Of a stretch of DNA of 64,000 nucleotides, positions 8,707 to 62,855 are shown in pieces. This DNA is from an uncultured Campylobacter sp. GTDB lineage: Bacteria; Campylobacterota; Campylobacteria; Campylobacterales; Campylobacteraceae. Under the pieces are notes generated by a model, which saw nothing but the letters and a program-made list of their open reading frames with translations, was not told the DNA's origin and did no database searches. Within the stretch, counting starts at the first letter, position 1, and every line of letters begins with the position of its first letter. Where the stretch lies: NCBI RefSeq assembly GCF_900539505.1, contig NZ_UQCL01000002.1; one strand, written 5' to 3'. Position numbers and translations under genes: made by a program.

Positions 8707-9885
8707 ATGCGACGCTCAAAGAAAAATTTTATCGAGACCCTTGCAAATGATCCAGCCTCCGCTAGCGCGCCGCAGCCGCAGAGGTCTAACTATGGCGCCG
8801 CGCTAAGCCACGGTGCTCCGCAAAATTCTAATACTACACAGAATTTTAACTCCGCAAAAAATTTAAATTCTACGCAAAGCTCGAATTCCGCGCAGAGTTT
8901 CGGGCAAAATTCCAATTCCACGCAAAACCATGCGCAAAATCCCGTTCCGCCTAGCAGGCTGTGGGATCTGGGGCTGCTTTTCGTAGCGATCGTTTGGGGA
9001 TGCACTTTCGTGCCTGTTCAGCGCGCGCTGCATAGCGGCGACGTTTTTAGCTTTTTGTTTTGGCGCTTTTTGGCGGCGAGCATTTTTACCTACCTCGCCT
9101 GCCTGCGCTTCGGCGTCAAATTTGACCGCGGCACGATAGGGCGGGGCGTGTTTTGCGGGCTGATGCTGTTTTGCGATTTTTCCTGCCAGACCATAGCGCT
9201 TGATTATGCGCTCTCCTCGACGGTGGCGTTCATTTTGGGGCTAAACGTCGTTATCGTGCCCTTTTTGATGCTTGCGTTTTTCGGTAAAAAGGTCGGTGCG
9301 AGCGCCTTTGGCGGCGCAGTCGTGGCGCTTTTGGGGCTCTATTTTTTAAGTGGAGCAAGCGCGGTGGGATTTGGCATAGGCGAGCGGTTGACGCTCGTTT
9401 CGGCATTTGCATACGCGCTTCACATCGTATTTACCGGCGTCTGCGCGCGCAAAAGCAATCTCTACGGCTTTGTGATCGTGCAGTTTATCTGCGTTTGCGT
9501 CTGCGCGCTGATCGCGGCAGTTTTCACTCCGCATGTGCAGTTTGAAGGCGAGATAAGGGTGATTGGAAATTTAATCTTTTCGCTGAACTTTGATTTCGTT
9601 TTTGCGCTGGTTTTGACCTCGATCTTTGCCACCGTTGCGGCGTTTGTGATCCAAACAATGGCGCAAAACCGCGGCGTAAGCGAGATAAAAACGGTGCTGA
9701 TTTTCGCGCTAGAGCCCGTAAGCGCGGGCATTATGGGGTATACCTTCGGCGAGAAGCTAAGCGCGCTTCAAATTTTAGGCGCGGCGCTGATACTCGCAGG
9801 CATCCTGCTTAGCGAGCTGGGCGGGCTTTTAGGCGCGAAGTTTGCTAAAAATCGAGCTTGCGAAAAAGCAGACCGAGGCGACTAG
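8707..9885 (+). CDS. EamA/DMT family transporter. The ORF is open from the ATG at 8125, giving an optional ~195-aa N/S/Q/F-rich low-complexity N-terminal extension
   Basis: The C-terminal ~300 aa has two EamA-type repeats (LLFVAIVWGCTFVPVQ…; …LIFALEPVSAGIMGYTFGEKLS) and 10 TM helices. The upstream 8125–8706 is AAATTT-repeat DNA read in frame (NFNSAKNLNSTQSSNS…). The true start is undetermined. Confidence 0.65.
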   Translation: MRRSKKNFIETLANDPASASAPQPQRSNYGAALSHGAPQNSNTTQNFNSAKNLNSTQSSNSAQSFGQNSNSTQNHAQNPVPPSRLWDLGLLFVAIVWGCTFVPVQRALHSGDVFSFLFWRFLAASIFTYLACLRFGVKFDRGTIGRGVFCGLMLFCDFSCQTIALDYALSSTVAFILGLNVVIVPFLMLAFFGKKVGASAFGGAVVALLGLYFLSGASAVGFGIGERLTLVSAFAYALHIVFTGVCARKSNLYGFVIVQFICVCVCALIAAVFTPHVQFEGEIRVIGNLIFSLNFDFVFALVLTSIFATVAAFVIQTMAQNRGVSEIKTVLIFALEPVSAGIMGYTFGEKLSALQILGAALILAGILLSELGGLLGAKFAKNRACEKADRGD

Positions 9886-11491: not shown

Positions 11492-12400
11492 GTGGAGAAA
11501 ATCGGCGAAAAATCAGATGAAAATAGCTGGGATAAAAAGTCCGAAAGTTACGCTAAATTTAGCGGCGAGCCGGGCAGTTTCGGCAAGCGGGTGTTTGAGA
11601 TACTGCGCGGCTGGGGCGTGAGCTTTGCGGGCAAAAGCGTGCTCGACGTGGGCGCCGGCACGGGGGTTTACTCGCTTTATCTCGCGTCGCTGGGCGCTAA
11701 AGTAACGGCGATCGATAGCTCCGAGGGGATGCTGCGCGAGCTAAGGCGCAGCGCGCAGGAGTTTGGAATTCGTCTGCAAAACGTATTAAATTTAAGCTTT
11801 GCGGAGTTTTGCGAGCGGCTGAGCCGCGATGGTTTCAGGGATACGACGGGCAAAAATTTTAAAATTTATCCGCGCCCGCAGAGCGAAATTTCAAACGCGC
11901 AAGCTCAAGAAGCGCAGGCTTTAAATTTTAAAAATTCTGCGAGCAAAAGCCGCGAGAGCGAAAATTTTAAAATTCCCGCAATTTTTGATATCGCGTTTCT
12001 TACGATGAGCCCCGCGCTAAAAAGCACGGAGGATTTTGAAGCGTTTTTGGCTTTGGGCGAGCGTAAAATTTATCTAAACTGGGCGAGCGAGCGCAATTCA
12101 TCTATGCTGGCGCCGCTTTTTGAGCGCTTCGGCACGGGGCATAAAAGACTTGCTACCGCCGCCGAAAAGTTCGAGGCGCTGCTTGGGGCGCGCGACATCA
12201 AATTTAAAAGCGAAATTTTAACCGAGAGGCGCGAGCAAAAACGCAGCCTGCAAGAAGCTGTGCAAAATGCCGCGTGGCACCTGCATATGGACGGCGCGGA
12301 GGCGAGCGAGCGTGAGATCGAGGAGCTTTTGAAAAAGCGGGCTAAAGGCGGGGTGATAAGCGATGAGATCGAAGCGAGCTTTAAGCTGTTTTATATTTAG
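11492..12400 (+). CDS. class I SAM-dependent methyltransferase carrying an internal ~60-aa low-complexity insert (GTG start)
   Basis: Motif I VLDVGAGTGVYSLYLA, post-I AIDSSEGML, motif II-like IFDIAFL. Between them lies NFKIYPRPQSEISNAQAQEAQALNFKNSASKSRESENFKIP, encoded by AAATTT-repeat DNA at about 11850–11990. Confidence 0.6.
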   Translation: MEKIGEKSDENSWDKKSESYAKFSGEPGSFGKRVFEILRGWGVSFAGKSVLDVGAGTGVYSLYLASLGAKVTAIDSSEGMLRELRRSAQEFGIRLQNVLNLSFAEFCERLSRDGFRDTTGKNFKIYPRPQSEISNAQAQEAQALNFKNSASKSRESENFKIPAIFDIAFLTMSPALKSTEDFEAFLALGERKIYLNWASERNSSMLAPLFERFGTGHKRLATAAEKFEALLGARDIKFKSEILTERREQKRSLQEAVQNAAWHLHMDGAEASEREIEELLKKRAKGGVISDEIEASFKLFYI

Positions 12401-13235
12401 TCTGGCGCCGGTTTTGGGGCTTTGCGGCAATCTTTTTACGCCGCTTGAGATGCCTAAATACGACCCGCAAAAGGCGCGGCTGGGCGCAAAAATTTTTACC
12501 GATGTAAGATTTAGCAGCAAAGGCCGCTCCTGCGAGAGCTGCCATAACTTCTATCTAAACGACTCAGGCGCTTCAGTGCGCGACGGACGCGTGCCTACGC
12601 TAATAAATTCTTATTATTTTGATCGCTACTTAGGCGATTATAATTTCGCGGGCTTTGAAGCGCGGATCGCGGCGTCGGTTTTTGGCAAGAACGAGCTTGA
12701 TGCGAGCGAAGATAGAATTTTAGAGCTTATCAGGAAGAATTTAACCTACAAGCAGGCTTTTGAAAGTGCTTACGGCGAGGCGAATACGGCGAACTTCATT
12801 GATGCGTTGAAGGAATTTTTAAAGTCCAAAACGGCGATAAATTCCAAATTTGACCGATTTTTGCGCGGCGAGGTTAAGCTAAATGATGCCGAATATAACG
12901 GATATGTGCTTTTTGTGCGGCTGTGCTCGGCATGCCATAACGGCGTTAGCCTAGGCACCGGCAGCTTTACTAAAATTCGCCCGAGCGCGGAAGAGGAGGA
13001 TGCGCCTAGGCATAGGCTCACTTCCGACGGATTTGAGTTGCGCCGCGTGCCTAGCTTGCGCAATATCACGCAAACCGCGCCTTACGTAAACGGGCAGACG
13101 GATTTGCGTCTTGCGGTGCGGCAGATCGCAAAAGATCTGCTAAAATACGATCTTAGCGATGGGGAACTTGATGCTTTGATGAGCTTTTTAGCTACACTTA
13201 AGGGCGAGATGACGGAGGCACAGGATGAAAGATAA
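12363..13235 (+). CDS. di-haem cytochrome c peroxidase family protein (lipoprotein-type signal)
   Basis: Two CxxCH haem-binding motifs (CESCH, CSACH). Signal MRSKRALSCFIFSLAPVLGLC. CCP/MauG-like spacing of the two motifs. Confidence 0.7.
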   Translation: MRSKRALSCFIFSLAPVLGLCGNLFTPLEMPKYDPQKARLGAKIFTDVRFSSKGRSCESCHNFYLNDSGASVRDGRVPTLINSYYFDRYLGDYNFAGFEARIAASVFGKNELDASEDRILELIRKNLTYKQAFESAYGEANTANFIDALKEFLKSKTAINSKFDRFLRGEVKLNDAEYNGYVLFVRLCSACHNGVSLGTGSFTKIRPSAEEEDAPRHRLTSDGFELRRVPSLRNITQTAPYVNGQTDLRLAVRQIAKDLLKYDLSDGELDALMSFLATLKGEMTEAQDER

Positions 13236-15645
13236 GATAATGTGGACTTTGATGGTGGGGATTATGATATTAGGCATAATCATCGCCGGGAATTATTTCT
13301 CGTCGCTAAGAGATGTAGCGAGATTTAGCACGATTTCGCGCGAGCTAGCTTTGATCGATAATGCCGACAACCGCTTAAATATATTATTTGATGCAAAGAT
13401 CGCAAGAAGGGACTTTTCGATTGCAAATGCCGATATGCGCGGCATCTATCAGGTGCTGCAAGCTTTACAAAAAGACAAAATCATCGATAAAATCGGACTT
13501 AGCAGCGATGTGCGCGCGATCGGAAGCGCTTTTAGCGATAAAATTTCACTTTTGGACGAGCTTGGGGCTTTAAATTCGCAGAATTTAATCCTTTTTCAAA
13601 GTCTGCAGCAAAAATTTTTATCCAGTGGCGCAAATGCGCAAAGAGCAAATCTCTACTCTCAAATTTTAGGGCTTAATTATAAAAATCGCTCCGAGATCTC
13701 TGCTTTAAAAAGTGCGCTAGAAAGCGCAGATGCGTCAAGCCCTGACGAAGCTGCGTTTATAGGAATCGCACGGCAAATTTTAAGGAATTTCGAGCGGCAA
13801 AATATCATCGTAAGTGATAATCTCTCGTTGCTAAATGAGCGCTTCGCAAGTCTGCGCGAGCGATTTTCTTACGCTAGTGAGGAATTTTACGGCTCGTTTA
13901 TGCAAATGACGATGCTTTACACGGCGGTGTTTTTGTCGTTTTTACTGCTTACTTACATCATAAATTCCAATGCTTTGCGTAGCAAACGCGCCCTCGCGCC
14001 CTATCACGCACTATGCGAGCAAGCAGGCGAAGCGATAGTTTTAGCAGATCAAAACTTTAAAATTTTATACGCTAATAAAAGCGTGCTTAGCTTAAGCGGC
14101 TACGAACAAAGCGAGCTGGAAGGAGGCGATCTTGGAGTTTTGATGCCCAAAGATAAAGGGATCGAACTTCCTGCGATGGTAAATAAAAGCGCCAAAGATA
14201 CGCGCCTTCTTCGTAAAAACGGCGAACTAGCCGATGTGAGCCTAAGGCTAGCAAATATCGCCACCGCATCCAAGCCGCCGCTATATGCACTTTACGCTCA
14301 TGACATCGGCGAGCGCGAGATTATGAAGCTAGCTCTTGCGAGCGCAAAGGAGAGCTTAAACAATCAAGTCTATATCGATCATCTTACGGGCCAGGGCAAC
14401 GAAGCAGCGCTATATGAGCTAATAAACGCCGAAAAAACGGGCGTAGCGATCTATATAACTATCGTAAATTTTGCAAATTTGCGACTTTTTTACAAGGCGG
14501 AGACGACGAATGAAATTCTGCGCTCCTTTGCGCGCACGCTTGCAATGTGTATCGAATCGCACGAGATCAAAGCTAGTATCTTTCGCATCCAATCGGATGA
14601 GTTTTGCCTATTTTACGAGGGACTAAATGTCGCGCGCGACGTGGAGATCATAAATAAATACTTCACCGACAAGGTTTTTAATCTCCATACCACCGAGGGC
14701 TTTGCCTCCGCGCCTTTAAATATCACGATGGGCGTAAGCGAGCGCGCCGACGTAGCGGGCGGCGCAAATAGGGTCTTTCAGGCGGTTATGGCGATGTATG
14801 AGGCGCAGAGCAAAAACGAGCACGTGGGCTTTTACTCGCGCCCAAATGCGATTGAGGAAAAATATCTTCAAAATCAGATTATGATCAACACCATTCAAAA
14901 CGCGATCAAGAAAAATCAAGTCTTTGTGCTTGTTCAGCCCATATTTGATATCACCCACCGCGATCCTAGTGGTAACACCTACGGCACCGAGGGCGGTGAT
15001 TATGTCCCGTTAGTATATGAAATTCTAATCCGCCTAATCGATCGTTCGGGCAAGACGCGCTGCCCGGGTGAGTTTATCGATATCGCAAAGCAAACCTCGC
15101 TCTACATCCCGCTAACTCAGGTAGTAATAAACGAAGCTTTTCGCTTGCTAGACCGCTTCGCAGGGACTTGCTTTAGCATAAATCTTTCATATTTTGACAT
15201 CGCAAACGAAGGTATCAAGGAGCTTTTAGAGCGCAAGCTCGCATCCAGTCCAAACGCTTCAAATCTATTCATTGAAATTTTAGAAAGCGAGGAATTTGAC
15301 GATTACGAGAGCCTACGCAGCTTCATCGCCGTAGCCAAAAACTACGGCTGCAAGGTCGCGATAGACGATTTTGGCAGCGGATACTCCAACTACTATAGAA
15401 TTTTAACGCTCGACGTGGATTACATAAAGATCGACGGAGCGCTCATCAAAAACATCGCAAACGACAAAAACTCGCGTGCTATCGTCGAAACCATCGCTAA
15501 CTTCGCGCGCAAGCAGGGCTACGAGCTCATCGCCGAATACGTAGAAAACCACGAAATTTCAATCATCTTAGAAGAGATGGGGATTAAATATATGCAAGGC
15601 TACTTCTACAGCAAGCCGATGGAGCCTTCGAGGATAAAATTCTAA
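13225..15645 (+). CDS. membrane sensor cyclic-di-GMP phosphodiesterase: periplasmic sensor region, PAS, degenerate GGDEF (SDEF) and EAL domains
   Basis: Two TM helices flank a ~190-aa N-terminal domain. PAS-like segment (ILYANKSVLSLSGYEQSEL). The GGDEF position reads IQSDEF. EAL domain with EILIR, DDFGSGYSNY and KIDGALI motifs. RBS GGAGG. Confidence 0.75.
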   Translation: MKDKIMWTLMVGIMILGIIIAGNYFSSLRDVARFSTISRELALIDNADNRLNILFDAKIARRDFSIANADMRGIYQVLQALQKDKIIDKIGLSSDVRAIGSAFSDKISLLDELGALNSQNLILFQSLQQKFLSSGANAQRANLYSQILGLNYKNRSEISALKSALESADASSPDEAAFIGIARQILRNFERQNIIVSDNLSLLNERFASLRERFSYASEEFYGSFMQMTMLYTAVFLSFLLLTYIINSNALRSKRALAPYHALCEQAGEAIVLADQNFKILYANKSVLSLSGYEQSELEGGDLGVLMPKDKGIELPAMVNKSAKDTRLLRKNGELADVSLRLANIATASKPPLYALYAHDIGEREIMKLALASAKESLNNQVYIDHLTGQGNEAALYELINAEKTGVAIYITIVNFANLRLFYKAETTNEILRSFARTLAMCIESHEIKASIFRIQSDEFCLFYEGLNVARDVEIINKYFTDKVFNLHTTEGFASAPLNITMGVSERADVAGGANRVFQAVMAMYEAQSKNEHVGFYSRPNAIEEKYLQNQIMINTIQNAIKKNQVFVLVQPIFDITHRDPSGNTYGTEGGDYVPLVYEILIRLIDRSGKTRCPGEFIDIAKQTSLYIPLTQVVINEAFRLLDRFAGTCFSINLSYFDIANEGIKELLERKLASSPNASNLFIEILESEEFDDYESLRSFIAVAKNYGCKVAIDDFGSGYSNYYRILTLDVDYIKIDGALIKNIANDKNSRAIVETIANFARKQGYELIAEYVENHEISIILEEMGIKYMQGYFYSKPMEPSRIKF

Positions 15646-16235
15646 TCTCATCTCGCCGCGACTTTATAGCCCGCCTCTTTAAATTTATAGCCCAAAGATC
15701 GCCTTCGCAAGGCGATAAATTCTGATTTAGCAAGCTGCTGCTTTAATACGAAATTTATCTTGGCAAATACTACGCGGTTTTATCACAAACTTATGGCATG
15801 CCTTGTAGCTAAAATCATCATAAAAGCTTGCGCATGGCAAATGAAGTGAGAGCTAAATTTAAAATTTAATGGCGGATCTATGGACGAAATTTTGCGAAGT
15901 TCAAAATTTTAAAATTCCAAGCTGTAGAATTTTAAAATTTGAAATGCGCGAGCTGCAAATTTAAGGCTAAATTTTAAAATTCCGTAGCGATAAAATTTTA
16001 AATTCCGCGCCTTAAACCCGCCTGCAAATTTTAAAATTTTATGGCGCAAATTTCGATCCATTCGTTTTATAACATTTCACGCGAGCTTTACAAAATAAAA
16101 ATTTTAACGAGCTTTGCTCTAATTATCGATAGAGCTTTCAAATGCAGGCGGAATTTTTAAGTGCAAACTTTCTTGCTTTCAGCGAGAATGAGCTTAAATT
16201 TTAGGCTTTAGCGCATTAGCTCAAGCAAATTCGCT

Positions 16236-25811: not shown

Positions 25812-26424
25812 TTTATGACGCAAAATTTAGCGCTGGCGGCACGCTTTTATCGCGGAATTCTGTAGCGTGGCAAAGATTTAATTTTGCTTGCTTTTAAAAT
25901 ACGACGCTTGCTAAAAATTTTAAAATTCCGTTTTGCTGGGCGGGAGTAGAAATTTAAGAATTTTAAATTCCACTATGTCTGCGCTAAAGCGCGAAATTTT
26001 AAAATTCCACTCCTTTTTTGTGCTGTTTTGTCAAATGCAATCTCAAAATTTAATCTCATAAAATTTTAAAATTTCATCGCGAGCTTTAAAGCGCTCATAA
26101 AATTTCTCACCCAATTCTGCAGCTTTAAAATTTTGTAAAATTCTGTGGCTTTAAAATTTTGCAAAATTTTAAAAATTTTAAATTCTATCGCTAGGACGCA
26201 GATGAAAACTCTAAAAAAACTCGCGCAAAATCGAAGCAAACAATGAAAAAGCGAATTTATTTGACGACTTTACTTACTATTTAATAATCATTAAAGATAT
26301 AAAAAGCTAAAATTGCTTTTTGCCTGCGGGCGAATTTAATGTCTGCTTGCCATTCGCGCGGGATTTTGAGGTTTCCCGTAGCCGTGGCAATAGTTTTGAA
26401 ATTATTTATGAGAAAGGAAAAAGG

Positions 26425-35439: not shown

Positions 35440-35560
35440 ATTTAGCTATTGCGGAAATTTGCTCGCGAGATTTTGCTATTGCAAAATTTGCTCTCGCAAA
35501 ATTTAACTATCGCAAATTCTGCCCTCGCAAAATTTAATGCTCGCAGCGCGCGGCGTTAAA
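35440..35560. repeat. degenerate ~25-bp tandem repeats in a long intergenic region
   Basis: …ATTGCGGAAATTTGCTCGCGAG / ATTTTGCTATTGCAAAATTTGCTCTCGC / AAAATTTAACTATCGCAAATTCTGCCCTCGC / AAAATTTAATGCTCGCAGCGC. Confidence 0.4.
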
Positions 35561-35962
35561 TTTTAAAATTCTAACTCGCATCAAAATAAGCGGTAAATTT
35601 TACTGCCGTTGGAACCTGCGTCTAAATTTAAAATTTCAATTTGCGCCGAAGCGAGAGATAAATTTAATCGCCGTCGCCGTTCGCGTATAAATTTTAAAAT
35701 TTAGCTCGCGCAAATCTTAGTCTGTACGGAATTTTAGCCCGCGCCAATTTAACCTGCGCAAAATTTATCCGCGCAGAATTTTGGTCGCGCCACTACGTTA
35801 AATTTCGCCGTAGCTTCCTAGCGTTAAATTTTGCTACCGAGCGACAAATTTGCCGTTGCCGCCGAGCGATAAAATTTACCGCCGCGAGAACCTTGCTGCC
35901 AAATTTATCGCCAAGAGCCGCCGCCCTAAAATTTCTCAAATTTTATAAAATTCGCCGCGCCG

Positions 35963-53782: not shown

Positions 53783-55456
53783 TTACGCCTCCAAAATCGC
53801 TCCGTTGCTAGCGTTCGTTACCAGTTTGCGATACATTCGCAACCAGCGATACGGCAGCGGTTTTTCAATCGGCTTAAATTTAGCCCTTCGCTCGGCGATT
53901 TCGGCTTCGCTTAGGCGCACGTTGATCGCGTAAGTATCCACGTCGATGTCGATGATATCGCCGTCCTCTAGCAGTCCGATCATGCCGCCCTCGGCAGCTT
54001 CGGGGCTTATGTGCCCGACGCTTAGCCCCCTCGTCGCTCCGCTAAATCTGCCGTCCGTGATGAGAGCCACGTCCGCACCGAGACCTCGCCCCATGATGAG
54101 CGAAGTCGGGCTTAGCATCTCCTGCATGCCCGGGCCTCCGCGCGGCCCTTCGTAGCGGATGACGACCACGTCGCCTTTGTTTACCTTGCCGCTTGAGATC
54201 CCCTCTATCGCCTCGTCTTGGCTGTTAAAGCACACGGCCTTGCCGCTAAATTTGCGCTCGCCGATAATGCCCGCGGTCTTGATGACGCAGCCCTGTTCGG
54301 CTAAATTTCCAAACAAAACCGCCAGCCCGCCGACCTGCGAGTAGGCGTTTTCGACCTTGCGGATGACCGATTCGTCTTTTATGGCGCTAGCTCCGACACG
54401 CTCGCCTAGGCTTTCGCCGCTTACTGTTAGCGCGTCTAGCCCCAGTAGCCCGTTATCGCGGCGTGAAATTTCATTTATCACGGCGCTTAGACCGCCCGCG
54501 CGGTCGATGTCCTCCATATGCACGTTTGGCAGGCTCGGGCTGATTTTGGCGATGTGAGCGATCTTGCGGCTGATCTCGTTGAGTCCAGCGATCTGTAAAT
54601 TTACCCCCGCTTCGCGCGCGATAGCCAGGATGTGCAGCACGGTGTTGCTGCTGCCGCCCATCGCCATATCGACGACTAGGGCGTTTTGGATCGATTTTTC
54701 GTTCACGATATTTCGGATTTTGTATTTTTCATCGAGCGCTATCTCGCAAATTCGGCGTCCCGCCTCGCGGATAAGCTCCTCACGCTCAGGCGTTAGCGCA
54801 GGCACCGTGCCGTTGCCCTTTAGCGCGATACCCATCGCTTCGCACAGCGTATTCATCGAGTTTGCCGTAAACATCCCCGAGCAGCTGCCTCCGCTCGGAC
54901 AGGCGGCGCACTCGATCTCTTTTAGCTCCTCGGCGCTGATCTCTTTGGTTTCAAATTTACCCACCGCCTCAAACGCAGTCGCAAGATCGATCGGCTCGCC
55001 TTTTTTGGTGTAGCCCTTTTTCATCGGGCCGCCGCTAACGAAAACCGTCGGCACGTTCACGCGAAGCGCGCCCATTACCATGCCGGGCACGATTTTATCG
55101 CAGTTTGGCATACACACGAGAGCGTCTAGGGCGTGCGCGTTCATCACCGTTTCTATGGAGTTTGCGATCAGCTCGCGGCTAGGCAGGCTATAAAGCATCC
55201 CAGCGTGCCCCATCGCGATGCCGTCGTCCACGCCGATGCAGTTAAACTCAAACGGCACGCAGCCGTTTTTGCGGATCTCGTCTTTTAAAATTTCGGAGTA
55301 TTTGTTGAGGAAAAAGTGCCCCGGGATGATCTCGATAAAGCTGTTTGCTACGCCGATGAAGGGCTTTTCAAAGTCTTCGTCCTTTAACCCGGTCGCTCTT
55401 AGCAAGCTTCTGTGCGGCGCGCGCGTATAGCCTTTTTTGATGATGTCGCTTCTCAT
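53783..55456 (-). CDS. ilvD: dihydroxy-acid dehydratase
   Basis: N-terminus [31 protein letters not shown] signatures (…CDKIVPGM…, …SGGPM…). RBS AAGGA before Met11 of the listed ORF. Confidence 0.9.
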
Positions 55457-55648
55457 TTTATGTCCTTGGATTGAAATTTTCTCCATTTTAGCATAAAATT
55501 TTACCGCTGCGGACGTTTAAAATTCTAGCGCATTAAAATTTTAAACGGGACCATTGAGCTTAATCAAATCGAATAACTCCTATTTTTGATATAATTGCAC
55601 ATCGATTATCAAAATCTTGCCGTTTGGCAGGAATGAAAAGAGGAAAAG

Positions 55649-56608
55649 ATGCAAAGAAGAAATTTCTTAAAACTAACGTCTGCGTTGGCGGCTAGCGGGC
55701 TTGTTAGCCCTCTTTTTGCGAAGGAAGCCTTCACTATCTACGGCGCGCCTGCGATGCCTAGCCTCATCATCGGCGTTGCGTGCATGCAGGGGCAGATCGG
55801 CAAAAAATACGACGCGAAGCTTGAGCTTTGGCGCGATCCCGATCAGCTGCGCGCGGGCGTGGCAAACGGCGAGTACAAGGTCATGATGAGCCCGAGCAAC
55901 GTGGGGGTGAACCTCGCAAATCAAGGGCGCAAGATCGGTATGGTAAATATCCTCACCGAAGGGCTAAATTTCGTGATGAGCAAAGGCGAGAAGATAACGG
56001 AATTTGCGCAGCTGAAGGGCAAAAAGATCGTAATGCCTTTTAAAAACGATATGCTAGACATCATCGTGCGAGCCATAGCGAAAAAGCAGGGCATTAGCGG
56101 GCTAAATATCGACTACACCGCCAGTCCCGCAGAGAGCGCGCAGCTGTTTTTGGCTAAGGACTACGACATCGCGATCACGGTGGAGCCGCTAGCAAGCGCC
56201 ATGATCTTAAAGGGCAAAGTATCGGGTATCGCCGTGCAACGAGGGGCAAATTTAAGCGATATGTGGGCGCAGGCGTTTTCGGTAAAGCCTATAATCCCGC
56301 AAGCGGGTATCATCGCTGATACCGATTTTTACGCCGCGAAAAAGGCGGATTTTGAAATTTTAAACGCCGATCTGGCAGACGCGCTTGCGTGGATAAAGGC
56401 AAACAAACAAAGCGCCGCGGCGATCGGGACAAATTTCTTTCCCGCGCCGCCGCCTGCGATATTTATGAGCATCGATACGTCGAATTTATGCGTCAAAAAG
56501 CCTAGCGAGATCAAGGACGAGCTTTTGAAATTTTATGAAATTTTGATGGAATTTAACCCCAAGCTCATTGGCGGCGCGATGCCTAAGGACGAGTTTTTTC
56601 TATGCTAA
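55649..56608 (+). CDS. ABC transporter substrate-binding protein, NMT1/THI5-like (NitT/TauT family), TAT-exported
   Basis: Twin-arginine signal MQRRNFLKLTSALAASGL. Size and pattern fit the sulfonate/nitrate/HMP-type binding proteins. Confidence 0.7.
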   Translation: MQRRNFLKLTSALAASGLVSPLFAKEAFTIYGAPAMPSLIIGVACMQGQIGKKYDAKLELWRDPDQLRAGVANGEYKVMMSPSNVGVNLANQGRKIGMVNILTEGLNFVMSKGEKITEFAQLKGKKIVMPFKNDMLDIIVRAIAKKQGISGLNIDYTASPAESAQLFLAKDYDIAITVEPLASAMILKGKVSGIAVQRGANLSDMWAQAFSVKPIIPQAGIIADTDFYAAKKADFEILNADLADALAWIKANKQSAAAIGTNFFPAPPPAIFMSIDTSNLCVKKPSEIKDELLKFYEILMEFNPKLIGGAMPKDEFFLC

Positions 56609-57399
56609 AAATCGATAAAATTCGCAAAGCTCAAAACCCCGTATTTTACGTCATAGACTATCTATGGGGCGGCTTTGCGAGCCTAGGGGCGGTGTGCTTT
56701 TTTATAGCCGTTTGGCAGGTGGCGAGCGAGGCTTACGGGCCGCTCATTCTGCCAGAACCCGCGGCTGTTTTTTTTAAGGCGTGTGAAATTTTAAAAAATT
56801 TCGCCGCAAACGATCTAGCCTTATCGCTTAAACGTGCGCTTGCAGGCACCTTTCTCGCGCTTTTTGCGGGGATTTGCAGCGGACTTGCGGCGGGGTATTT
56901 CAAAAGCCTGCGAACCTTTTTAAACCCGCTAATCACCGTGCTTCTTTCGACGCCGCCCATCGTCTGGATCGTGCTTGCGATATTTTGGTTTCATTTCGGC
57001 GATACGAGCGTGCTTTTTACCGTCGTTATCGTCGTCGCGCCGATGACTTTTGCGTCCGCGGCGCAGGCGATGGCTAGCGTGAGCACCGAATACACCGAGC
57101 TTTTCGACAGCTACAAAAGCTCAATTTTAAAAAAACTGCGCTACCTCTACGCGCCGCACCTAATCGAGCGGCTGCTCCCTGCGATCTACGTTGCGGTCAG
57201 CAACGGCGCGAAGGTGCTTGTGATGGCGGAGCTTTTAGGCGCGAACGACGGCATCGGCGCAAAGATAGCCGAAGCGCGCGTCAATATCGATACGGTCGAG
57301 GTCATGGCGTATGTGTGCCTAGTCATAGCCTTTACGGCGCTTTTCGATTATCTCGTGACCAAGCCGCTTGAAATTTTACTGATGCCGTGGAGCAGATGA
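56602..57399 (+). CDS. ABC transporter permease (NitT/TauT family)
   Basis: Six TM helices. Its stop overlaps the ATPase start (ATGA). Confidence 0.75.
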   Translation: MLKIDKIRKAQNPVFYVIDYLWGGFASLGAVCFFIAVWQVASEAYGPLILPEPAAVFFKACEILKNFAANDLALSLKRALAGTFLALFAGICSGLAAGYFKSLRTFLNPLITVLLSTPPIVWIVLAIFWFHFGDTSVLFTVVIVVAPMTFASAAQAMASVSTEYTELFDSYKSSILKKLRYLYAPHLIERLLPAIYVAVSNGAKVLVMAELLGANDGIGAKIAEARVNIDTVEVMAYVCLVIAFTALFDYLVTKPLEILLMPWSR

Positions 57400-58088
57400 T
57401 GCTAAAAATTTCAAATTTGCGCTACGAAATTCTGCGCGACGTTATAATTTCCGATTTTTCGCTGCGGCTGCGCGCGGGCGAAGTAAAGACGCTTTTTGGC
57501 CCCAGCGGCTGCGGCAAGACCTCGCTTTTGCGGCTGGTCTGCGGGCTGGAGGATAAAAAAAGCGGGCAGATCGAAAACGGCTTTAAGAAAATCAGCTTTT
57601 TGTTTCAAGAAAACCGCCTGCTGCCGAACCTCACGGCACTTAAAAATATCGAAATTTTTAGCCCTGCGGGCGTGAGTGAAATTTACGCCCTTGCCGCGAA
57701 GATCGGGCTAAGCCCGAGCGATCTGAATAAATTCCCGCGCGAGCTAAGCGGCGGCATGCAAAAGCGCACGGCGTTTTTGCGCACGATCCTTAGCGGCTGC
57801 GATCTGGCGCTGCTTGATGAGCCATTTGTAGGTCTGGATCGCGATCTGCGCGGCGCGCTGATCGAAATTTTAGTCTCAAAGATCGAGCGCGAGGGGCTTG
57901 CCTGCCTTTTGGTGACCCACGACCGCTTCGAAGCCGCACGCCTAAGCCACGAGATCATCGAGCTTGAGCCCAAAGGGATGGGGCTTAGACGCGTCGTGAG
58001 GCTGGATGAGCCGCTAAGCGCGCGCGACGAGCGGTACGAAGAGCGCGTGGTAAGCGAGCAGTTTGGGGGAGTAAGCTATTATGAATAG
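57396..58088 (+). CDS. ABC transporter ATP-binding protein (NitT/TauT family)
   Basis: Walker A GPSGCGKTS, signature LSGGMQKRTAF, Walker B LLDEP. ATG at 57396; the listed GTG at 57387 lies inside the permease gene. Confidence 0.8.
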   Translation: MMLKISNLRYEILRDVIISDFSLRLRAGEVKTLFGPSGCGKTSLLRLVCGLEDKKSGQIENGFKKISFLFQENRLLPNLTALKNIEIFSPAGVSEIYALAAKIGLSPSDLNKFPRELSGGMQKRTAFLRTILSGCDLALLDEPFVGLDRDLRGALIEILVSKIEREGLACLLVTHDRFEAARLSHEIIELEPKGMGLRRVVRLDEPLSARDERYEERVVSEQFGGVSYYE

Positions 58089-58159
58089 AAATTTTATCTT
58101 TAATGCGCGCAAACAGGGAGGTTCCGCACGAAATTTGAACTTACGTTGCGGCTCAGACG

Positions 58160-58340
58160 CGAGCAAGCGGGACTTTGGCGCACAGCGTGTTCTGGGCGCG
58201 TACGGATGCGGGTATTTGTCGGGCGCTAGATGCGACGATCTGGGCATACGCAGACACGGGCTCTTACGAAGTACTAGATGCCGCGATTTCGGCGCGGGCA
58301 GACACAGGCTCTTGCAGGACACCGGGCGCCGTGGTTTTGC
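58160..58340. repeat. three degenerate ~48-bp tandem repeats (GC-rich)
   Basis: Units GCGCGTACGGATGCGGGTATTTGTCGGGCGCTAGATGCGACGATCTGG / GCATACGCAGACACGGGCTCTTACGAAGTACTAGATGCCGCGATTTCG / GCGCGGGCAGACACAGGCTCTTGCAGGACACCGGGCGCCGTGGTTTTG. Confidence 0.5.
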
Positions 58341-58599
58341 CGTACCGAAATACGAACTGCGCAGCCATGCGAACTGCGATTATAGTGCGAGCGTGCTCTT
58401 GAATGGCGCAGTGTGCTGCGGTTTTGTAGCACAAAATTCGACGAAATTTAGCAGCGATACATACTGCGGCTCTAGCGCGGGCGCTTGTTTACAGCGCGTA
58501 TCCGATCGCCCTGCTCGTGCCGCCTGCCCGCATTGCAGATTTGGTACGAACCCAGACGCCCGTCTGCGTTGTGGATTTGGCGCAGATTATTTTAAAAAT

Positions 58600-59124
58600 T
58601 CAGGCGGAATTCCTACGCGAAATTTTAAAATTTACGCTCTCGATTTCGCACGGAATTTTAAAGATTTTACACGGAGCTTGGAAGCCGCACCCGCGCAAAA
58701 TTTCAAAATTTCCGATCTAAATTTTACGCGAAATTTTAAAAATTCAGCTCGCAATTCGGACGCCGAGCCAGTGCAAAGCTTTAAAAATCCAAATTTCGCA
58801 CATGATTTCTTGCAAAGCGCTAAAAGCTACGATCAAAATTCCACTCATGGCTTCTCACAAAGCGGCAGAAGCGCCGAGCCAAATTCCGAGGCGAGTTTTT
58901 CGCAGAGCATTAAAAATTCCGAACGGAATTTCTCGTTAAGCTTCTTACAAAGCGCCAAGAATTCCGATCAAAGTCAAAATTTCAAATCCAGTTTCGCGCA
59001 AAGCTTTAAAAATCAAAATTTCGCGTGGGATTTCTCACAAAACGGCAGAAGCGCCGAGCCAAATTCTGTTCAAAACTTCTCGCAAAGCACTAAAAATTCC
59101 GATCGGAATTTTAAGGCTAATTCC
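58600..59124. repeat. AAATTT/AAAATTC-rich repeat tract containing two ~180-bp imperfect tandem units
   Basis: TTCTCACAAAGCGGCAGAAGCGCCGAGCCAAATTC… at about 58850 recurs at about 59030. AAAGCTTTAAAAATC(C/A)AAATTTCGC occurs twice. Confidence 0.5.
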
Positions 59125-60345
59125 ATGCAAAATCAAGTAGAGCCCGTTTCGTTGCAGGAGTTCAAAAATCCGAAGCCGTGCCCGGCGCAGAAGCAAGGGC
59201 TGGGCTTTTACGCGCCTAAATTTAAAGATGAGCGCGCTAGGAATTTTTTCTCCCATCCGATGCGCGCTTTCGTTCTTTGCGCCTGCTTTTTTGCGGCGCT
59301 GGGCGCGCTTAGTTTTTTAGCGCCCGATGCGCTGGCGATCGATTATGTCGCCGCTCATAAGTTTTACTTTCTGTTTTTGGCGCCTTCGTGCATCTACGCG
59401 GCGTTTTTGCTTACCGCGCTGCCCGATTGGACGAACTTCGAGGGCTCGCTAAAGCCCGTCTCGCTCGCCTTTGCCGCCTGCCTGATCGCAGCTTTTATCG
59501 CGAGCTTTTTAAATTTACGGCTTGCGGCTGCGATCACGGCGCTGTTTTGGGCGGTATTTTTCATCTTTGCGGCGCGGCTTTTGTGGCTGGATAAAAACTC
59601 GAATAATTTTAGCATCCTGGCAGTCCTTGCGGCGTTTTGCGCCTGCTCTGCGGCCTATGGCGCGAGCGGGGATGAGAAGTTTTTGCTTAGCTTCGTGCAT
59701 ATCAACGTCGCGGCAATCGCCGTCGTAAGCTACCGCATAAGCGTCGTCATCGGCAACGAAGCGCTAAGAGAGGCGGGGCTGAAGGACGCCGTTTTTATTC
59801 CAAATTTTATCTACAAAAATTTAGCCGCTTTCCTCGCCTTCGCTTTGGCGCTCGCGACGCCATTTTTAAGCGAGGCGACGTGCGGATTTATCGCGCTTGG
59901 CATCGGGTTTTTGTTTTTGGCAAAACTTCGCGAGCTACACTACGTCGAAATTCTAAGCCGTCACTATATGGCGTTTTACTACGCGTTGCAGGCTGCGTGC
60001 GCGGCGGGCTATGCGTGGCTGGGTTGGGAGCTGATCCGCGGGGGATACGCTGCTGCACCGCTGCACGTCATCGCGATCTGCTATATGTATGGAGCGATAC
60101 TTTTCGTAGGAATGATCGCCGGACAGCGCCACAGCGGAATTTCGCCGCTAAACTTCCCGCGCCTAAGCCGCGCGGCGCTCGTTTTGGCTCTGCTCGCGGG
60201 AGGTTTAAGAGCCGTTTTTGCGGGCGAGAGCTTTGTTTTATACGTGATGATCCCCTCGGCGCTTTTCATCGCCGCGGTCGCGCTATATCTGATAAATTTC
60301 ATCCCGATCTTTCTGAAAAATCCTTTCAGCGCGGATCCGGATTGA
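59125..60345 (+). CDS. NnrS-like haem/copper membrane protein. The ORF is also open from the ATG at 58081, which overlaps the ABC ATPase stop
   Basis: The C-terminal ~400 aa is polytopic (…SHPMRAFVLCACFFAALGAL…, 10–12 TM), similar to the NnrS N-terminal pattern GFRPFFL.AAL. The 348 codons upstream are translated repeat DNA. The true start is undetermined. Confidence 0.5.
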   Translation: MQNQVEPVSLQEFKNPKPCPAQKQGLGFYAPKFKDERARNFFSHPMRAFVLCACFFAALGALSFLAPDALAIDYVAAHKFYFLFLAPSCIYAAFLLTALPDWTNFEGSLKPVSLAFAACLIAAFIASFLNLRLAAAITALFWAVFFIFAARLLWLDKNSNNFSILAVLAAFCACSAAYGASGDEKFLLSFVHINVAAIAVVSYRISVVIGNEALREAGLKDAVFIPNFIYKNLAAFLAFALALATPFLSEATCGFIALGIGFLFLAKLRELHYVEILSRHYMAFYYALQAACAAGYAWLGWELIRGGYAAAPLHVIAICYMYGAILFVGMIAGQRHSGISPLNFPRLSRAALVLALLAGGLRAVFAGESFVLYVMIPSALFIAAVALYLINFIPIFLKNPFSADPD

Positions 60346-60411
60346 TGCTCATCAAAGCGGGCTTGCTAAATTTTAGCTACAATCGATCAAATTTCATTTC
60401 AAGGAGAACTT

Positions 60412-60741
60412 ATGCAACACATCAAAAATATCGACGCCGCTAAGGCCGTAGAGCTTGCTTCGCTAGTCGAAGTGGCCCCTCATAAGGTGATTTCGCGCAC
60501 CCTCGCGCAAAATCCTGCGCTAAATATGACGCTTTTCGCCTTCGACGACGGCGAGGAGATCAGCTCGCACAAATCTGACGGCGACGCATTCGTTTACGTG
60601 CTTGAGGGCGAGGGCGATTTCACGATCGACGGGCAGAAGCACCGCGTAAAAGCGGGGCAAAGCATCGTCATGCCTGCGGGCTTGCCGCACGCGATCTTCG
60701 CGCCGGTACCGTTTAAGTGGTTTTTAGTGGTGGTTTTTTAG
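60412..60741 (+). CDS. cupin-domain protein
   Basis: Cupin-2 β-barrel motifs (G.EISSHKSDGDAFVYVLEGEG…, MPAGLPHAI). RBS AAGGAG. Confidence 0.7.
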   Translation: MQHIKNIDAAKAVELASLVEVAPHKVISRTLAQNPALNMTLFAFDDGEEISSHKSDGDAFVYVLEGEGDFTIDGQKHRVKAGQSIVMPAGLPHAIFAPVPFKWFLVVVF

Positions 60742-60989
60742 CCTCTAAGCTTAAGGGCGGGTCAAATTTTAAAATTTAGCCCGCCCGCCGCTTCATAAAA
60801 TTTTATCCGAAATTCCATTCGCAGGGTCGCTCTGTTTGTTTCCGCCTGCTCCCGTTCGCTCTCACAAAATTTTAAAATTTAGAAACGTTTAAATTTTATT
60901 TTCACCGCGCCAAAAAATTTCGTCTGTTTTGCAAACCGTGCGGGAGCTAAAAATAACACATCGCGTTTACGCGCTGTGTCTGGCCCCGA

Positions 60990-61260
60990 AATCGCACGCT
61001 TGAGCTCGCATCGCAAGTCAAATCCATAGCTCGCGCGTTAAATTTCAAAGCCGCATCGAGCATGCAAATGCGCGCCAAGCTAGTCGAGCAGATAGGCGCT
61101 GTAATAGGGCAATGCGCCGAGCGTGCAATACATATCGGGAGAATAGAGCAGACGGGCGCCGTAGTAGGGCGAACCCGCCCAGTGCGCAATGCGCGCCTAG
61201 CTCATAGATTAAGCGTAAATTTAAAGGCCGTGTCCTGCGCGAAATGCACGCCAAGCCGGC
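60990..61260. repeat. cluster of imperfect GC-rich direct repeats downstream of recJ
   Basis: GCAAATGCGCGCCAAGC / GCAATGCGCCGAGC / GCAATGCGCGCCTAGC / GAAATGCACGCCAAGC, with AGCAGATAGGCGCTGTAATAGGG versus AGCAGACGGGCGCCGTAGTAGGG. Confidence 0.5.
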
Positions 61261-61274
61261 CTAAATTTTAAAAT

Positions 61275-62855
61275 TTAGCTCTCGCTAGGGGTCAGCTCCT
61301 TGATGATGAGCTCGGGCGTGATCGTGCCGCGGAAGTTGTTTTTGCTAATCGTAAAGATCGCGTCCACTCGCTCGCCGGCGCGCGGCAAAAAGTCGTAGTT
61401 GAAAAACAGCGCCTCGACGCTGCCGCCGTTTTTGTCAAGCGCCATTTTGATATGTTTGCCCTCCTTGCCGATCTCTCTGATGTTGCGGGCGCGGGCGCCT
61501 TTGATGCAAAAGAGCGGGCGCGGATTTTTCTGCCCGTAGGGCTCGTAAAATTCTAAAATTTCAAGCAGTTCGAAGTCTATCTGCGACGCATCCAGCTCGC
61601 CCAACAGATCGTCTTGCGCGCTAAAATCGCTCAGATCCTTAGGCGTAATGCGCTCATTTACGCGCCGCTTAAACTCCTGCAGCAGCGCAGGATCGATCCC
61701 CACGCCCGCAGCGCCCTTGTGCCCGCCGAAGGTCGTTAAAATTTCGCTTTGCGAGGAGATCAGCTCTAAAATGTCAAATTTACCGATGCTGCGCGCACTT
61801 CCTTTGGCGCGCGAGTCGCTCACGCTAAAGACGATCGCGGGCTTTTTGTAGGTCTTGCTTAGTCGGCTTGCGACGATCCCGATGATCCCTTCGTGCCACT
61901 GCGGACCCCACACGACGATGACGTTGTCGCTCGGATCGACGCTTTTTACGATCTCGTCGTAGAGGTTTTTCTCCTCCTCTTTGCGCGAGTTGTTGATTGA
62001 ATTTATCGTCTCTAGGTAGTGGTTTGCCTCTCTGATATTTTTGGCGCATAGAAATTTATACGACATCGTCGCATCGTCCATCCGCCCCGTGCAGTTGATT
62101 AGCGGCGCGATCGTGTAGCTGATATCGTCGAATTCGAAATGTTTTTTGAAATAATGCTCTTTAATCGCCTTGAAGCAGGCGCGGTTCGAGCTATTTAGCC
62201 GCTTGATGCCGAAGCGCAAAAGCGCGCGGTTCATATCGCGCAGCTCCATCATATCGGCGATTATGGCGATGATGAGAATATCCATCGAGCTTGCCATATC
62301 GTAGTTAACGCCGAGGGTTTCTTTTAGCGCGCCCACGAGATACCACGCTACCTGCGCGCCACAAATTTCGATATTCGGGAAGGTGCAGTCAGGCTGCTTC
62401 GGATTGATTATCGCATAAGCTCTAGGCAGCACGGGCGGGGGCATGTGATGATCGGTGATGATGAGATCGATCCCCTTTTGGGCGCAAATTTCGGCAGCTT
62501 CCGTCGCGGAGGTGCCGTTATCTACGGTGATGATGAGATCTACATCCTCAAGCTCGCCTATAATCTCGCTGTTTAGCCCGTATCCGTCGGTGAAGCGGTT
62601 CGGGATCTTAATGACGTACTCCGCGCCTATTTGATTGAAAAAATCGCTCATTATGACGGTGCTTACGATACCGTCGACGTCGTAATCGCCGACTACGGCT
62701 ATGCGCTGATTTTCTTCGATGGCAGTTTTTATGCGCAAAGCCGCCTTATAGGTATCTTTCAGATCGCAGGGTAAGGGAATTTCAGAAATTTTAGTATGCC
62801 GATCGTTTGCAAATCTCGATTTTAGAATTTCCCTTATCTCATTTTTACCTAGCAT
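61275..62855 (-). CDS. recJ: single-stranded-DNA-specific exonuclease RecJ
   Basis: DHH motifs (IAVVGDYDVDGIVST…, IITDHH). DHHA1 domain. C-terminal OB region. Confidence 0.85.
   Translation of the reverse strand: MLGKNEIREILKSRFANDRHTKISEIPLPCDLKDTYKAALRIKTAIEENQRIAVVGDYDVDGIVSTVIMSDFFNQIGAEYVIKIPNRFTDGYGLNSEIIGELEDVDLIITVDNGTSATEAAEICAQKGIDLIITDHHMPPPVLPRAYAIINPKQPDCTFPNIEICGAQVAWYLVGALKETLGVNYDMASSMDILIIAIIADMMELRDMNRALLRFGIKRLNSSNRACFKAIKEHYFKKHFEFDDISYTIAPLINCTGRMDDATMSYKFLCAKNIREANHYLETINSINNSRKEEEKNLYDEIVKSVDPSDNVIVVWGPQWHEGIIGIVASRLSKTYKKPAIVFSVSDSRAKGSARSIGKFDILELISSQSEILTTFGGHKGAAGVGIDPALLQEFKRRVNERITPKDLSDFSAQDDLLGELDASQIDFELLEILEFYEPYGQKNPRPLFCIKGARARNIREIGKEGKHIKMALDKNGGSVEALFFNYDFLPRAGERVDAIFTISKNNFRGTITPELIIKELTPSES

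Follow-up and report, generated by a model that had tools for sequence, protein, structure and literature searches.

The repeat tract at 58081-59244, upstream of a gene for an NnrS-type membrane protein in an uncultured Campylobacter sp., is in our judgement very probably translated as the 5′ part of that gene. Since selection purges both stop codons and out-of-frame indels along the entire tract, across ~50 species-level lineages of the Campylobacter gracilis group, ribosomes must read frame 1. The window analyzed, meaning the whole stretch of DNA under study, is 64,000 nucleotides long.

A repeat-rich open frame between an ABC ATPase gene and NnrS

The tract lies at the end of a same-strand cluster of ABC transporter genes. 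The features of the locus are as follows.

55649-56608, plus strand: ABC transporter substrate-binding protein gene (TAT-type signal, NMT1/SsuA-like; weak Pfam/NCBIfam matches), which heads the cluster
56602-57399, plus strand: ABC transporter permease gene (BPD_transp_1)
57387-58088, plus strand: ABC transporter ATPase gene; its stop, TAG at 58086-58088, falls within the start of the nnrS ORF
58068-58071, plus strand: Shine-Dalgarno-like GGAG within the ATPase coding sequence, 9 nt 5′ of the ATG at 58081
58081-58083, plus strand: start codon of the long nnrS ORF, overlapping the ATPase gene by 8 nt (ATGAATAG); conserved as ATG in 49/49 relatives in the alignment
58081-60345, plus strand: nnrS ORF, 754 aa, stop-free, ending in the Pfam NnrS domain
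58081-58152, plus strand: conserved N-terminal core, aa 1-24 (M[NS]RNFIFNARKQGGSARNLNLRCG); dN 0.05-0.07
58153-58605, plus strand: aa 25-175 of the tail, GC-rich and with many Cys, Arg, and Gly residues; degenerate units of 48 nt (16 aa) occur at ~58189-58380; missing from the shortest relatives
58606-59100, plus strand: AT-rich, N/F/S/K/Q-rich part of the tail, aa 176-340, with repeat modules and AAATTT-type motifs read mostly as Asn-Phe
59101-59244, plus strand: linker preceding the membrane domain, aa 341-388
59125-59127, plus strand: internal ATG (M349), AAGG 8 nt upstream; the start chosen by some gene callers
59260-59262, plus strand: internal ATG (M394), invariant but located within the conserved first helix, just after codons under strong constraint; it is not the only start
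59245-60345, plus strand: membrane domain of NnrS (Pfam PF05940 at aa 389-746, with 12 helices predicted), followed by the stop codon
60412-60741, plus strand: Cupin_2 protein gene downstream of nnrS, syntenic in relatives

As the initial annotation had described, the ATG at 58081 overlaps the ATPase stop: the sequence read as TAT TAT GAA TAG in the ATPase frame is ATG AAT AGA in the nnrS frame. An in-frame TAA at 58072-58074 ends the nnrS frame directly 5′ of this ATG, and the context of the GGAG motif, GAGT[G/A]AGCTATTATGA, is kept in 50 loci. Given the overlap and the position of GGAG, initiation at 58081 would be translationally coupled to the ATPase gene. The 348 codons noted earlier between this ATG and the one at 59125 are indeed free of stops, and the frame runs on into the membrane domain. 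The NnrS-like identity first proposed for that domain agrees with a PF05940 match of 124.7 bits (cut-off 28) that covers positions 2-369 of the 371 in the profile. The encoded protein is WP_295097911.1.

The tract had been described as GC-rich 48-bp tandem repeats followed by AAATTT-type repeats. Repeats are present, but as degenerate 48-, 78-, and 45-nt modules; Tandem Repeats Finder (TRF) detected no array in 57900-59400, its sole match being CAAAATTT x2.1 (an 8-nt unit), and no homopolymer or short perfect repeat in the tract. A repeat search and autocorrelation revealed modules spaced in every case by a multiple of 3 nt: a 16-aa/48-nt period at aa ~37-100 of the tail, 26-aa/78-nt units at 58616-58771, 15-aa/45-nt units at 58803-59104, and a pair of copies 225 nt apart (58773-58897 and 58998-59122). 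Units are 66-81% identical as DNA, with a lag identity of about 0.2-0.3. The described change from a Cys/Arg-rich to an N/F/S/K-rich translation matches what we found, as aa 1-175 are rich in R/G/A/S/L/C (7% Cys) and aa 176-388 in S/N/F/A/Q/K.

Two other kinds of element were considered in the tract. No RNA family was credibly matched when 55400-61300 was scanned against Rfam at E≤1 (one chance match scored 23.7 bits against a gathering score of 75), and we abandoned the idea of a riboswitch or leader RNA. A gene on the opposite strand or in another frame was ruled out, since every other frame is full of stops (7-26 in each of the other five frames of this tract). A promoter and terminator scan gave counts within shuffle expectation and no promoter-like site on the plus strand of the tract.

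By composition the tract does not resemble a gene. Its codon-usage score is 0.04-0.10, compared to 0.41-0.65 in neighboring genes, its GC content is flat over codon positions, and intergenic-type AAATTT/AATTTTAAA motifs occur within it. Because the score is near zero and GC is flat, Prodigal and PGAP often pick internal starts, giving proteins of 361-613 aa, while more than 120 public protein clusters are called at 657-1063 aa. The "short" NnrS entries in databases (361 and 406 aa) reflect the gene caller's choice of start or a scaffold gap, not frame breakage. Public start sites for nnrS are inconsistent, with lengths from 361 to 1063 aa for near-identical membrane domains.

These properties (the poor codon usage, the flat GC, and the intergenic-type motifs) would also fit a tract that is an untranslated leader or intergenic repeat DNA, with NnrS starting at M394 (59260) or M349 (59125) and the open frame a by-product of units whose lengths are multiples of 3. 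Gene callers at times start at one or the other position, and M394 is invariant. We nevertheless consider an untranslated tract highly improbable, and the comparisons with relatives described below already bring it close to refuted.

Conservation of the frame among relatives

We compared 52 species-level complete loci from the C. gracilis group, in which NnrS is 95-99% identical. As these relatives are close and many are MAGs, repeat lengths could include some assembly error. The frame is conserved: in 50 of the 52 loci it is open from the ATPase-overlapping ATG (ATTATGA[A/G]TA[G/A]) into NnrS, with tails of 113-667 codons, even though substitutions and indels have turned the tract over heavily. 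Frame +1 of the relatives contains no stop in 24,734 codons, compared to 630-1533 stops in each other frame, and columns in which a stop is present in just a subset of the aligned sequences number 0, 49, and 105 in frames 1, 2, and 3, respectively. That so long a stop-free frame is unlikely by chance, as suggested at the outset, was borne out by first-order Markov simulation of the 387-codon tract, which gave a mean of 13.8 in-frame stops and no stop-free run in 20,000. If the tract were untranslated, about five nonsense substitutions per sequence would be expected (4.9 when substitutions are relocated at random). None was seen in 49 sequences, and each of the four quarters of the tract shows the deficit, aa 1-60 included.

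Indels give the same picture. In frame-blind nucleotide alignments, 106/106 gaps at ≥90% identity and 2099/2158 at ≥85% identity are multiples of 3. The commonest lengths are 45, 6, 33, 3, 48, and 30 nt, and gaps of 78 and 90 nt also occur. Indels as small as 3, 6, and 9 nt, too short to be whole repeat units, likewise stay in frame, arguing against a frame kept open merely by unit length. In contrast, only 11% of gaps are multiples of 3 in a true spacer nearby (cupin-recJ, same loci and parameters), where 1-nt gaps dominate. Initial, lenient nucleotide alignments had given many gaps that were not multiples of 3; we judged these to be artifacts, since raising the gap penalty removed them but left the 1-nt gaps of the intergenic control in place.

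Of the two internal starts, M349 is ATG in only 10 of 49 relatives and ACG in 36, and the AGGA that precedes M394 lies 17 nt from it. Since profile positions 2-369 align to aa 389-746, the NnrS domain starts before M394. Just 5′ of M394, aa 382-393 (KDERARNFFSHP, 59224-59259) have a dN of 0.005 and a dS of 0.28 (dN/dS 0.02), which is not expected of an untranslated leader. Among 49 aligned relatives, aa 200-394 contain no conserved start-codon column besides M394, and the ATG at 58081 is the sole ATG of the shortest (113-aa) tails. The alignments thus show the ATPase-overlapping ATG to be the only candidate start codon conserved in all relatives.

The initial annotation had also raised the possibility that the tract is phase-variable in unit number and controls expression. 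The number of modules does differ between relatives, as it had suggested might be the case: pairs at least 95% identical differ by gaps of 3, 30, 45, and 48 nt, and a 736-aa variant clusters at 90% with the 754-aa protein. Rare frameshift variants exist as well. However, a contingency switch, in which repeat number turns nnrS on and off or tunes its expression, is in our view extremely doubtful, as the tract lacks simple-sequence repeats and 97-100% of indels preserve the frame; the proposal is unsupported as an on/off mechanism. In addition, no contingency genes are reported in the genome paper on the type strain of C. gracilis (PMC4574385).

Frameshifts combined with an intact NnrS domain, which had been put forward as evidence that would count against a translated tract, occur in just 2 of the 52 relatives, so that the condition applies no more than marginally. 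One (L005) carries a 17-nt duplication-like insertion, and its 112-aa fragment is found on at least nine contigs and annotated as WP_315005163.1; the other (L036) has gained or lost 1 nt within an A/T run. Both frameshifts are young, the remaining tract is still stop-free, and they lie at different sites outside the repeat arrays, which again does not fit a switch driven by repeat number. Since NnrS is intact in both, the full tail is dispensable, at least transiently.

Constraint on the tail and its likely nature

The product would be a 12-helix NnrS preceded by a 390-residue tail that is basic, hydrophilic, and of low complexity. Its length would shift as degenerate modules of 45, 48, 78, and 90 nt are gained or lost in frame, and through larger deletions between copies of GAAATTT-type motifs, all in one frame. 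The tail evolves 5-8 times faster than NnrS, and its amino acid sequence appears only weakly constrained (dN/dS 0.44, compared to 0.14 for NnrS). An open frame seems to be its chief requirement, because no conserved internal start delivers ribosomes to the membrane domain.

These data also bear on a related explanation, in which translation of the tract serves just to couple the two genes and the peptide itself does nothing. Selection would then preserve unbroken translation between the ATPase stop and the NnrS domain, avoiding loss of initiation and Rho-type polarity; continuous translation would be needed because the domain lacks a usable start. This explanation shares the translated step with ours and differs on whether the tail matters as protein. 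Consistent with a mere spacer, dN/dS is 0.2-0.9 over most of the tract, substitutions are almost flat by codon position in the GC-rich part, composition is non-coding-like, and no internal start is conserved. The range of tolerated lengths, and the loss of the entire Cys-rich half in some lineages, also fit. However, in frame-blind alignments dN/dS in frame 1 is below that of the two off-frames (0.80 and 0.68), and the first 24 and last ~50 residues of the tail are conserved. A spacer should shrink to a few codons, yet no relative has fewer than 113, and an unrelated second membrane protein gene has gained a similar tail. We regard a functionless peptide as possible but doubtful.

The idea of a conserved module in the Cys-rich half that binds metal or NO was considered and rejected. 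Several Cys columns are 90-100% conserved where present. As Tyr and Arg freely replace Cys at other positions and no more than 0-1 Cys is left in the shortest relatives, such a module is not essential.

A HMMER search of the tract against 1.84 billion representatives gave six matches, four of which were the same gene and two unrelated repeat proteins (P0154 and P0155), and a PDB sequence search found no relative. The genome-collection scan for nnrS loci gave close relatives only and no outgroup locus. The non-coding-like composition, the AAATTT motifs that also occur in the intergenic DNA of this genome, and the lack of a homolog together suggest that the tail originated within this lineage from spacer or repeat DNA.

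An AlphaFold2 model of the full ORF (63-sequence alignment) is of low confidence throughout (mean pLDDT 33). It places 12 helices between aa 384 and 746 and no helix or strand in aa 1-383 (pLDDT 23-37). With so shallow an alignment even the NnrS domain scores below 50, and the model therefore cannot establish that the tail is disordered. The tail does resemble a disordered region in its biased, hydrophilic composition and fast, indel-rich evolution. It has a net charge of about +25 and no hydrophobic segment; no 19-residue Kyte-Doolittle window exceeds 1.33, compared to maxima of up to 2.45 in the NnrS part. Lys and Arg number 6 in the N-side loops and 1 on the opposite side. From composition, fast evolution, and the absence of predicted secondary structure in the low-confidence model, the tail is most likely largely disordered. 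It most likely stays in the cytoplasm. Thus, of the large repeat-derived disordered N-terminal domain envisaged initially, translation is supported by the comparative evidence and by the constraint 5′ of M394, while disorder stands as a prediction. Our best guess for the role of the translated tail, if it has one, is a flexible cytoplasmic spacer or interaction arm of low sequence specificity.

Significance and comparison with known systems

The nnrS tract is a natural case of DNA that looks non-coding and misleads gene finders about the start, yet is kept open over ~50 species-level lineages while changing six-fold in length. It offers a tractable bacterial system for studying how repeat DNA gives rise to low-complexity or disordered segments, how these can lengthen and shorten while the gene stays intact, and whether selection acts on the peptide or on uninterrupted translation alone.

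In the same window, a DMT transporter gene (8125-9885) has the same kind of N-terminal extension, and a 56%-identical outgroup protein lacks it. Two tailed genes, nnrS and this one, thus lie within one 64-kb window, and the parallel suggests that the phenomenon is wider in the C. gracilis lineage. We also entertain, as an unlikely conjecture, that in genomes of this group the abundant spacer or repeat DNA rich in AAATTT is recurrently converted into N-terminal tails, translated, basic, and disordered, on polytopic membrane proteins. These would form a lineage-wide class of newborn coding sequence that grows and shrinks rapidly and has a shared function, not neutral passengers. If so, that function might be membrane-protein biogenesis or tethering to nucleic acid or to a membrane surface.

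[quoted passage not shown] Since NnrS is implicated in nitric oxide stress in other bacteria, the tail may matter for how oral and gut Campylobacter cope with host NO. Literature searches on C. gracilis and NnrS, and on N-terminal fusions of NnrS, returned nothing relevant. The C-terminal 366 residues agree with the family in matching the full Pfam profile and in their twelve predicted helices. The protein differs in its 390-residue N-terminal tail without a homolog elsewhere and in a start that overlaps an ABC ATPase gene. The profile has 371 positions, and the nearest homolog found outside the gracilis group (P0150) has 390 aa. At 754 aa here and 657-1063 aa in relatives, this is therefore a variant NnrS architecture and not a single domain of ~370-400 residues.

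Like lineage-specific de novo or repeat-derived coding sequences, including those that arise by N-terminal capture of upstream DNA, the tail is an orphan with non-coding-like composition, intergenic motifs, and weak purifying selection; it differs in that the ancestral non-coding state of nnrS is seen in no outgroup locus, the genome scan having returned close relatives only. The start resembles translationally coupled ATGA-type overlaps in operons, with the same overlap of start and stop and an SD-like GGAG inside the upstream gene; here the overlap is 8 nt, and coupling is read from the sequence only. With the simple-sequence contingency loci of Campylobacter, Neisseria, and Haemophilus, the tract shares a hypervariable position at the 5′ end of a gene, but it has no simple-sequence repeat, its indels are in frame, and it shows no on/off pattern. 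The in-frame coding VNTR domains of bacterial proteins also have multiple-of-3 spacings, copy variation between close relatives, and a frame that is kept. In contrast to these, the units of the nnrS tail are highly degenerate and escape TRF, three or more types of unit are interspersed with non-repeat segments without a clearly recognizable head-to-tail array, and the tail is predicted to be a cytoplasmic part of a polytopic membrane protein, not surface-exposed.

Start and extent of the nnrS frame

The claim that the ATG at 58081 overlaps the ATPase stop was borne out by reading both frames, as TAT TAT GAA TAG in the ATPase frame contains ATG AAT AGA in the nnrS frame. The relevant features are:

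57387-58088, plus strand: ABC-transporter ATPase gene, its last codons overlapped by the nnrS ATG
58068-58071: GGAG, 9 nt upstream of the nnrS ATG at 58081
58072-58074, plus strand: in-frame TAA, read from the sequence
58081-60345, plus strand: long nnrS ORF, 754 codons

Since the TAA is in frame, no earlier start is possible. The frame does run without a stop into NnrS, as had been noted: a Pfam NnrS domain (PF05940, 124.7 bits, profile positions 2-369 of 371) occupies aa 389-746 of the product, WP_295097911.1 (754 aa, annotated "NnrS family protein"). Because the domain begins at aa 389, the first 388 codons (58081-59244; the tract, encoding an N-terminal tail) are extra. Genes for a substrate-binding protein, a permease, the ATPase, the long NnrS and a cupin lie in this order on one strand, and relatives have the identical order of ABC genes, nnrS and cupin gene. 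We infer that the upstream ABC transporter is translationally linked to nnrS. Its substrate-binding protein (55649-56608) carries a signal of the twin-arginine type and matches NMT1/SsuA/phosphonate-binding families only weakly.

We compared the in-frame Met codons M1 (58081), M349 (59125) and M394 (59260). M1 is ATG in 49/49 relatives and is the sole ATG in the shortest tracts (113 aa). M349 is ATG in 10/49 and ACG in 36/49; M394 is invariant, but lies within the first helix. The twelve codons immediately before M394 (KDERARNFFSHP) have a dN of 0.005 against a dS of 0.28, which marks them as translated, and the relatives' alignment has no conserved start-codon column from aa 200 to aa 394. 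Since M1 is invariant and the internal ATGs are either not conserved or inside the first helix, these alignments indicate that nnrS starts at the ATPase-overlapping ATG, where initiation probably occurs through translational coupling to the ATPase gene.

Public start calls for near-identical NnrS domains (the window at 58081-60345 and database entries P0121-P0148) disagree, giving 361, 406, 481, 499, 541, 562 and up to 1063 aa. PGAP and Prodigal often take internal starts despite the open long frame (499 aa in locus L037, 541 aa in L039). Two short entries were ruled out as broken genes: P0131 (361 aa) adjoins a 100-N scaffold gap, and for P0122 (406 aa) the long frame is wholly open and the caller picked an internal ATG.

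Selection on the open frame in relatives

The organism falls within the Campylobacter gracilis group. The comparison drew on 54 species-representative loci whose NnrS domains are 95-99% identical; 52 of them contained the whole tract. Conservation of the frame, a check proposed in the initial annotation, was found in 50 of these 52, in which it is open from the ATPase-overlapping ATG into NnrS with the start context GAGT[G/A]AGCTATTATGA[A/G]TA[G/A]. Tract length ranges from 113 to 667 codons (390 in the window), and over 120 clusters in protein databases have lengths of 657-1063 aa.

Tracts simulated from the window alone (387 codons, first-order Markov) contained a mean of 13.8 in-frame stops, and 0 of 20,000 were stop-free. 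In the relatives' loci, the frame entering NnrS (frame 1) has no stop in 24,734 codons, with 630-1533 in each of the other five frames. In the codon alignment, frame 1 has no column in which only some sequences carry a stop; frame 2 has 49 such columns and frame 3 has 105. The 49 aligned tracts depart from their consensus at 11.5% of positions; when the substitutions of each were relocated at random, 4.9 new in-frame stops were expected per sequence (242 in the 49 sequences), against 0 observed. The deficit is present in every quarter of the tract, aa 1-60 included.

Gaps were scored in nucleotide alignments made without regard to reading frame and with a strict gap penalty; the cupin-recJ spacer served as a control under identical parameters. 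Gap length was divisible by 3 in 106/106 cases for pairs at least 90% identical and in 2099/2158 for pairs at least 85% identical, the most frequent lengths being 45, 6, 33, 3, 48, 30, 90 and 78 nt. In the spacer of the same loci, 11% of gaps were multiples of 3 and 1-nt gaps predominated. In the same frame-blind alignments, dN/dS was 0.44 for frame 1 of the tract and 0.80 and 0.68 for the off-frames (NnrS, 0.14; ATPase, 0.08). The four tests (stop columns, stop deficit, gap lengths and dN/dS) agree in pointing to selection for the open frame, and by these sequence comparisons the tract is read by ribosomes. Compared with the flanking genes, dN in the tail is 5-8 times as high, and the amino-acid sequence of the tail is, in these alignments, weakly constrained.

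The initial annotation had named frameshifts beside an intact NnrS domain as counter-evidence; these occur in two loci, whereas the frame is open in the other 50. In L005 (about 3040-3160), a 17-nt duplication-like insertion near "ELRSHANC", between short direct repeats GAACTGCG, leaves the ORF in two pieces, a fragment of 112 aa and a remainder of 735 aa, and L036 has a 1-nt indel within an A/T run. As the rest of both tracts lacks stops in the original frame, the changes are young. The 112-aa fragment (P0152/P0156, WP_315005163.1) is found on at least 9 contigs of differing origin, so the L005 type probably reflects a genuine lineage rather than a misassembly. The Cys-rich half is missing in the shortest variants (0-1 Cys vs 13-26 elsewhere). 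Judging from these losses and the frameshifts, the complete tail is not indispensable.

Composition and origin of the tail

Tandem Repeats Finder detected no tandem array in the tract. A seed-based repeat search and protein autocorrelation revealed degenerate modules, every spacing being a multiple of 3:

aa ~37-100: 16-aa (48-nt) period in the Cys/Arg/Gly-rich part of the tail
58616-58771, plus strand: two 78-nt units
58803-59104, plus strand: run of 45-nt units
within the tract: a module pair spaced 225 nt apart

The composition described in the initial annotation holds, but "tandem repeats" holds only in part, since the repeats are old and degenerate. Residues 1-175 are R13 G13 A11 S9 L8 C7 (%; net charge +16) and residues 176-388 S15 N12 F11 A9 Q9 K8 (net charge +9). 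The AT-rich half shares its AAATTT/AATTTTAAA motifs with this genome's intergenic regions, which are full of them; in the tail they are read mostly as Asn-Phe.

AAATTT is the window's most over-represented hexamer (472 copies, 21.8 times the base-composition expectation, ~7.4 per kb). Motifs of the AATTTTAAA type gather in intergenic DNA (11855-11966, 15858-16030, 25916-26174, 35559-35693 and 60765-60871), and RAATTY density in the window is 10.8 per kb. In C. jejuni, methylation at RAATTY allows self-DNA to be told apart during transformation, a possible lead to the abundance of AAATTT here.

In codon usage the tract scores 0.04-0.10, compared with 0.41-0.65 for the neighbouring genes and values below zero for true spacers; GC by codon position is flat in the tract, versus 0.53/0.37/0.58 in ordinary genes. 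A search of the tail against 1.84 billion representative proteins returned nothing beyond this gene itself and two repeat proteins unrelated to it. Together, composition, orphan status and AAATTT motifs fit a tail that arose within this lineage out of spacer or repeat DNA. The suggestion of a large repeat-derived N-terminal domain on NnrS gains support from the relatives' open frame and the selection tests.

We detected no hydrophobic segment in the tail (maximum Kyte-Doolittle 19-residue mean, 1.33), and loops contain 6 K+R on the N-terminal side vs 1 opposite. Membrane-protein biogenesis does not normally carry long, charged N-tails across the membrane, so this one is predicted to be cytoplasmic. 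AlphaFold2 placed aa 1-383 without secondary structure, followed by 12 helices; mean pLDDT was 33 because the available homologues are all near-identical, and the model is only consistent with a disordered tail.

A second gene of the window (loci L057-L094) has an extension with similar features:

8125-9885, plus strand: EamA/DMT transporter ORF with N-terminal extension

The extension (~275 residues, A/N/S/L/F/K-rich, net charge +16, poor codon score) averages 76% identity to the window's copy, versus 96% for the EamA part, and the protein forms more than 120 clusters of 525-629 aa. The frame into EamA is free of stops in 32 complete metagenome loci, against 185-578 stops in the other frames; a conserved MKN... 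ATG starts 29 of the 32 (exceptions L079, L087 and L092), with lengths of 230-321 codons. An outgroup protein (L091; 56% identical, 302 aa) has no extension. By these comparisons, the tail phenomenon extends beyond nnrS in the C. gracilis group. Elsewhere, an 810-codon ORF (13213-15645, plus strand), whose C-terminal part resembles GGDEF and EAL domains by eye, has a low codon-usage score at codons ~104-223, which look like an ordinary helical sensor region, unlike a repeat tail.

Phase variation and known systems

The alternative that unit number controls nnrS by phase variation was not upheld. Module number does vary between very close relatives, yet the frame stays. Tandem Repeats Finder found no simple-sequence repeat in the tract and length changes are in frame, so we rejected an on/off switch in favour of a coding tract hypervariable in length. 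The C. gracilis type-strain genome paper reported no contingency genes (PMC4574385).

As a whole, the initial observation on 58081-59260 is confirmed. The tract is of value mainly because it can serve as a model for weakly constrained coding sequence derived from repeats, and because such tails recur in the C. gracilis group. Previous work describes NnrS as a membrane protein containing haem and copper, with an auxiliary role in NO stress (PMC3345576); the literature searched yielded no description of an NnrS with a long hypervariable tail. The tract lacks the defining features of contingency loci and behaves like an in-frame coding VNTR, but without a recognisable array. By profile match, the C-terminal part of the ORF is a member of the NnrS family, and the tailed architecture is a variant of it.
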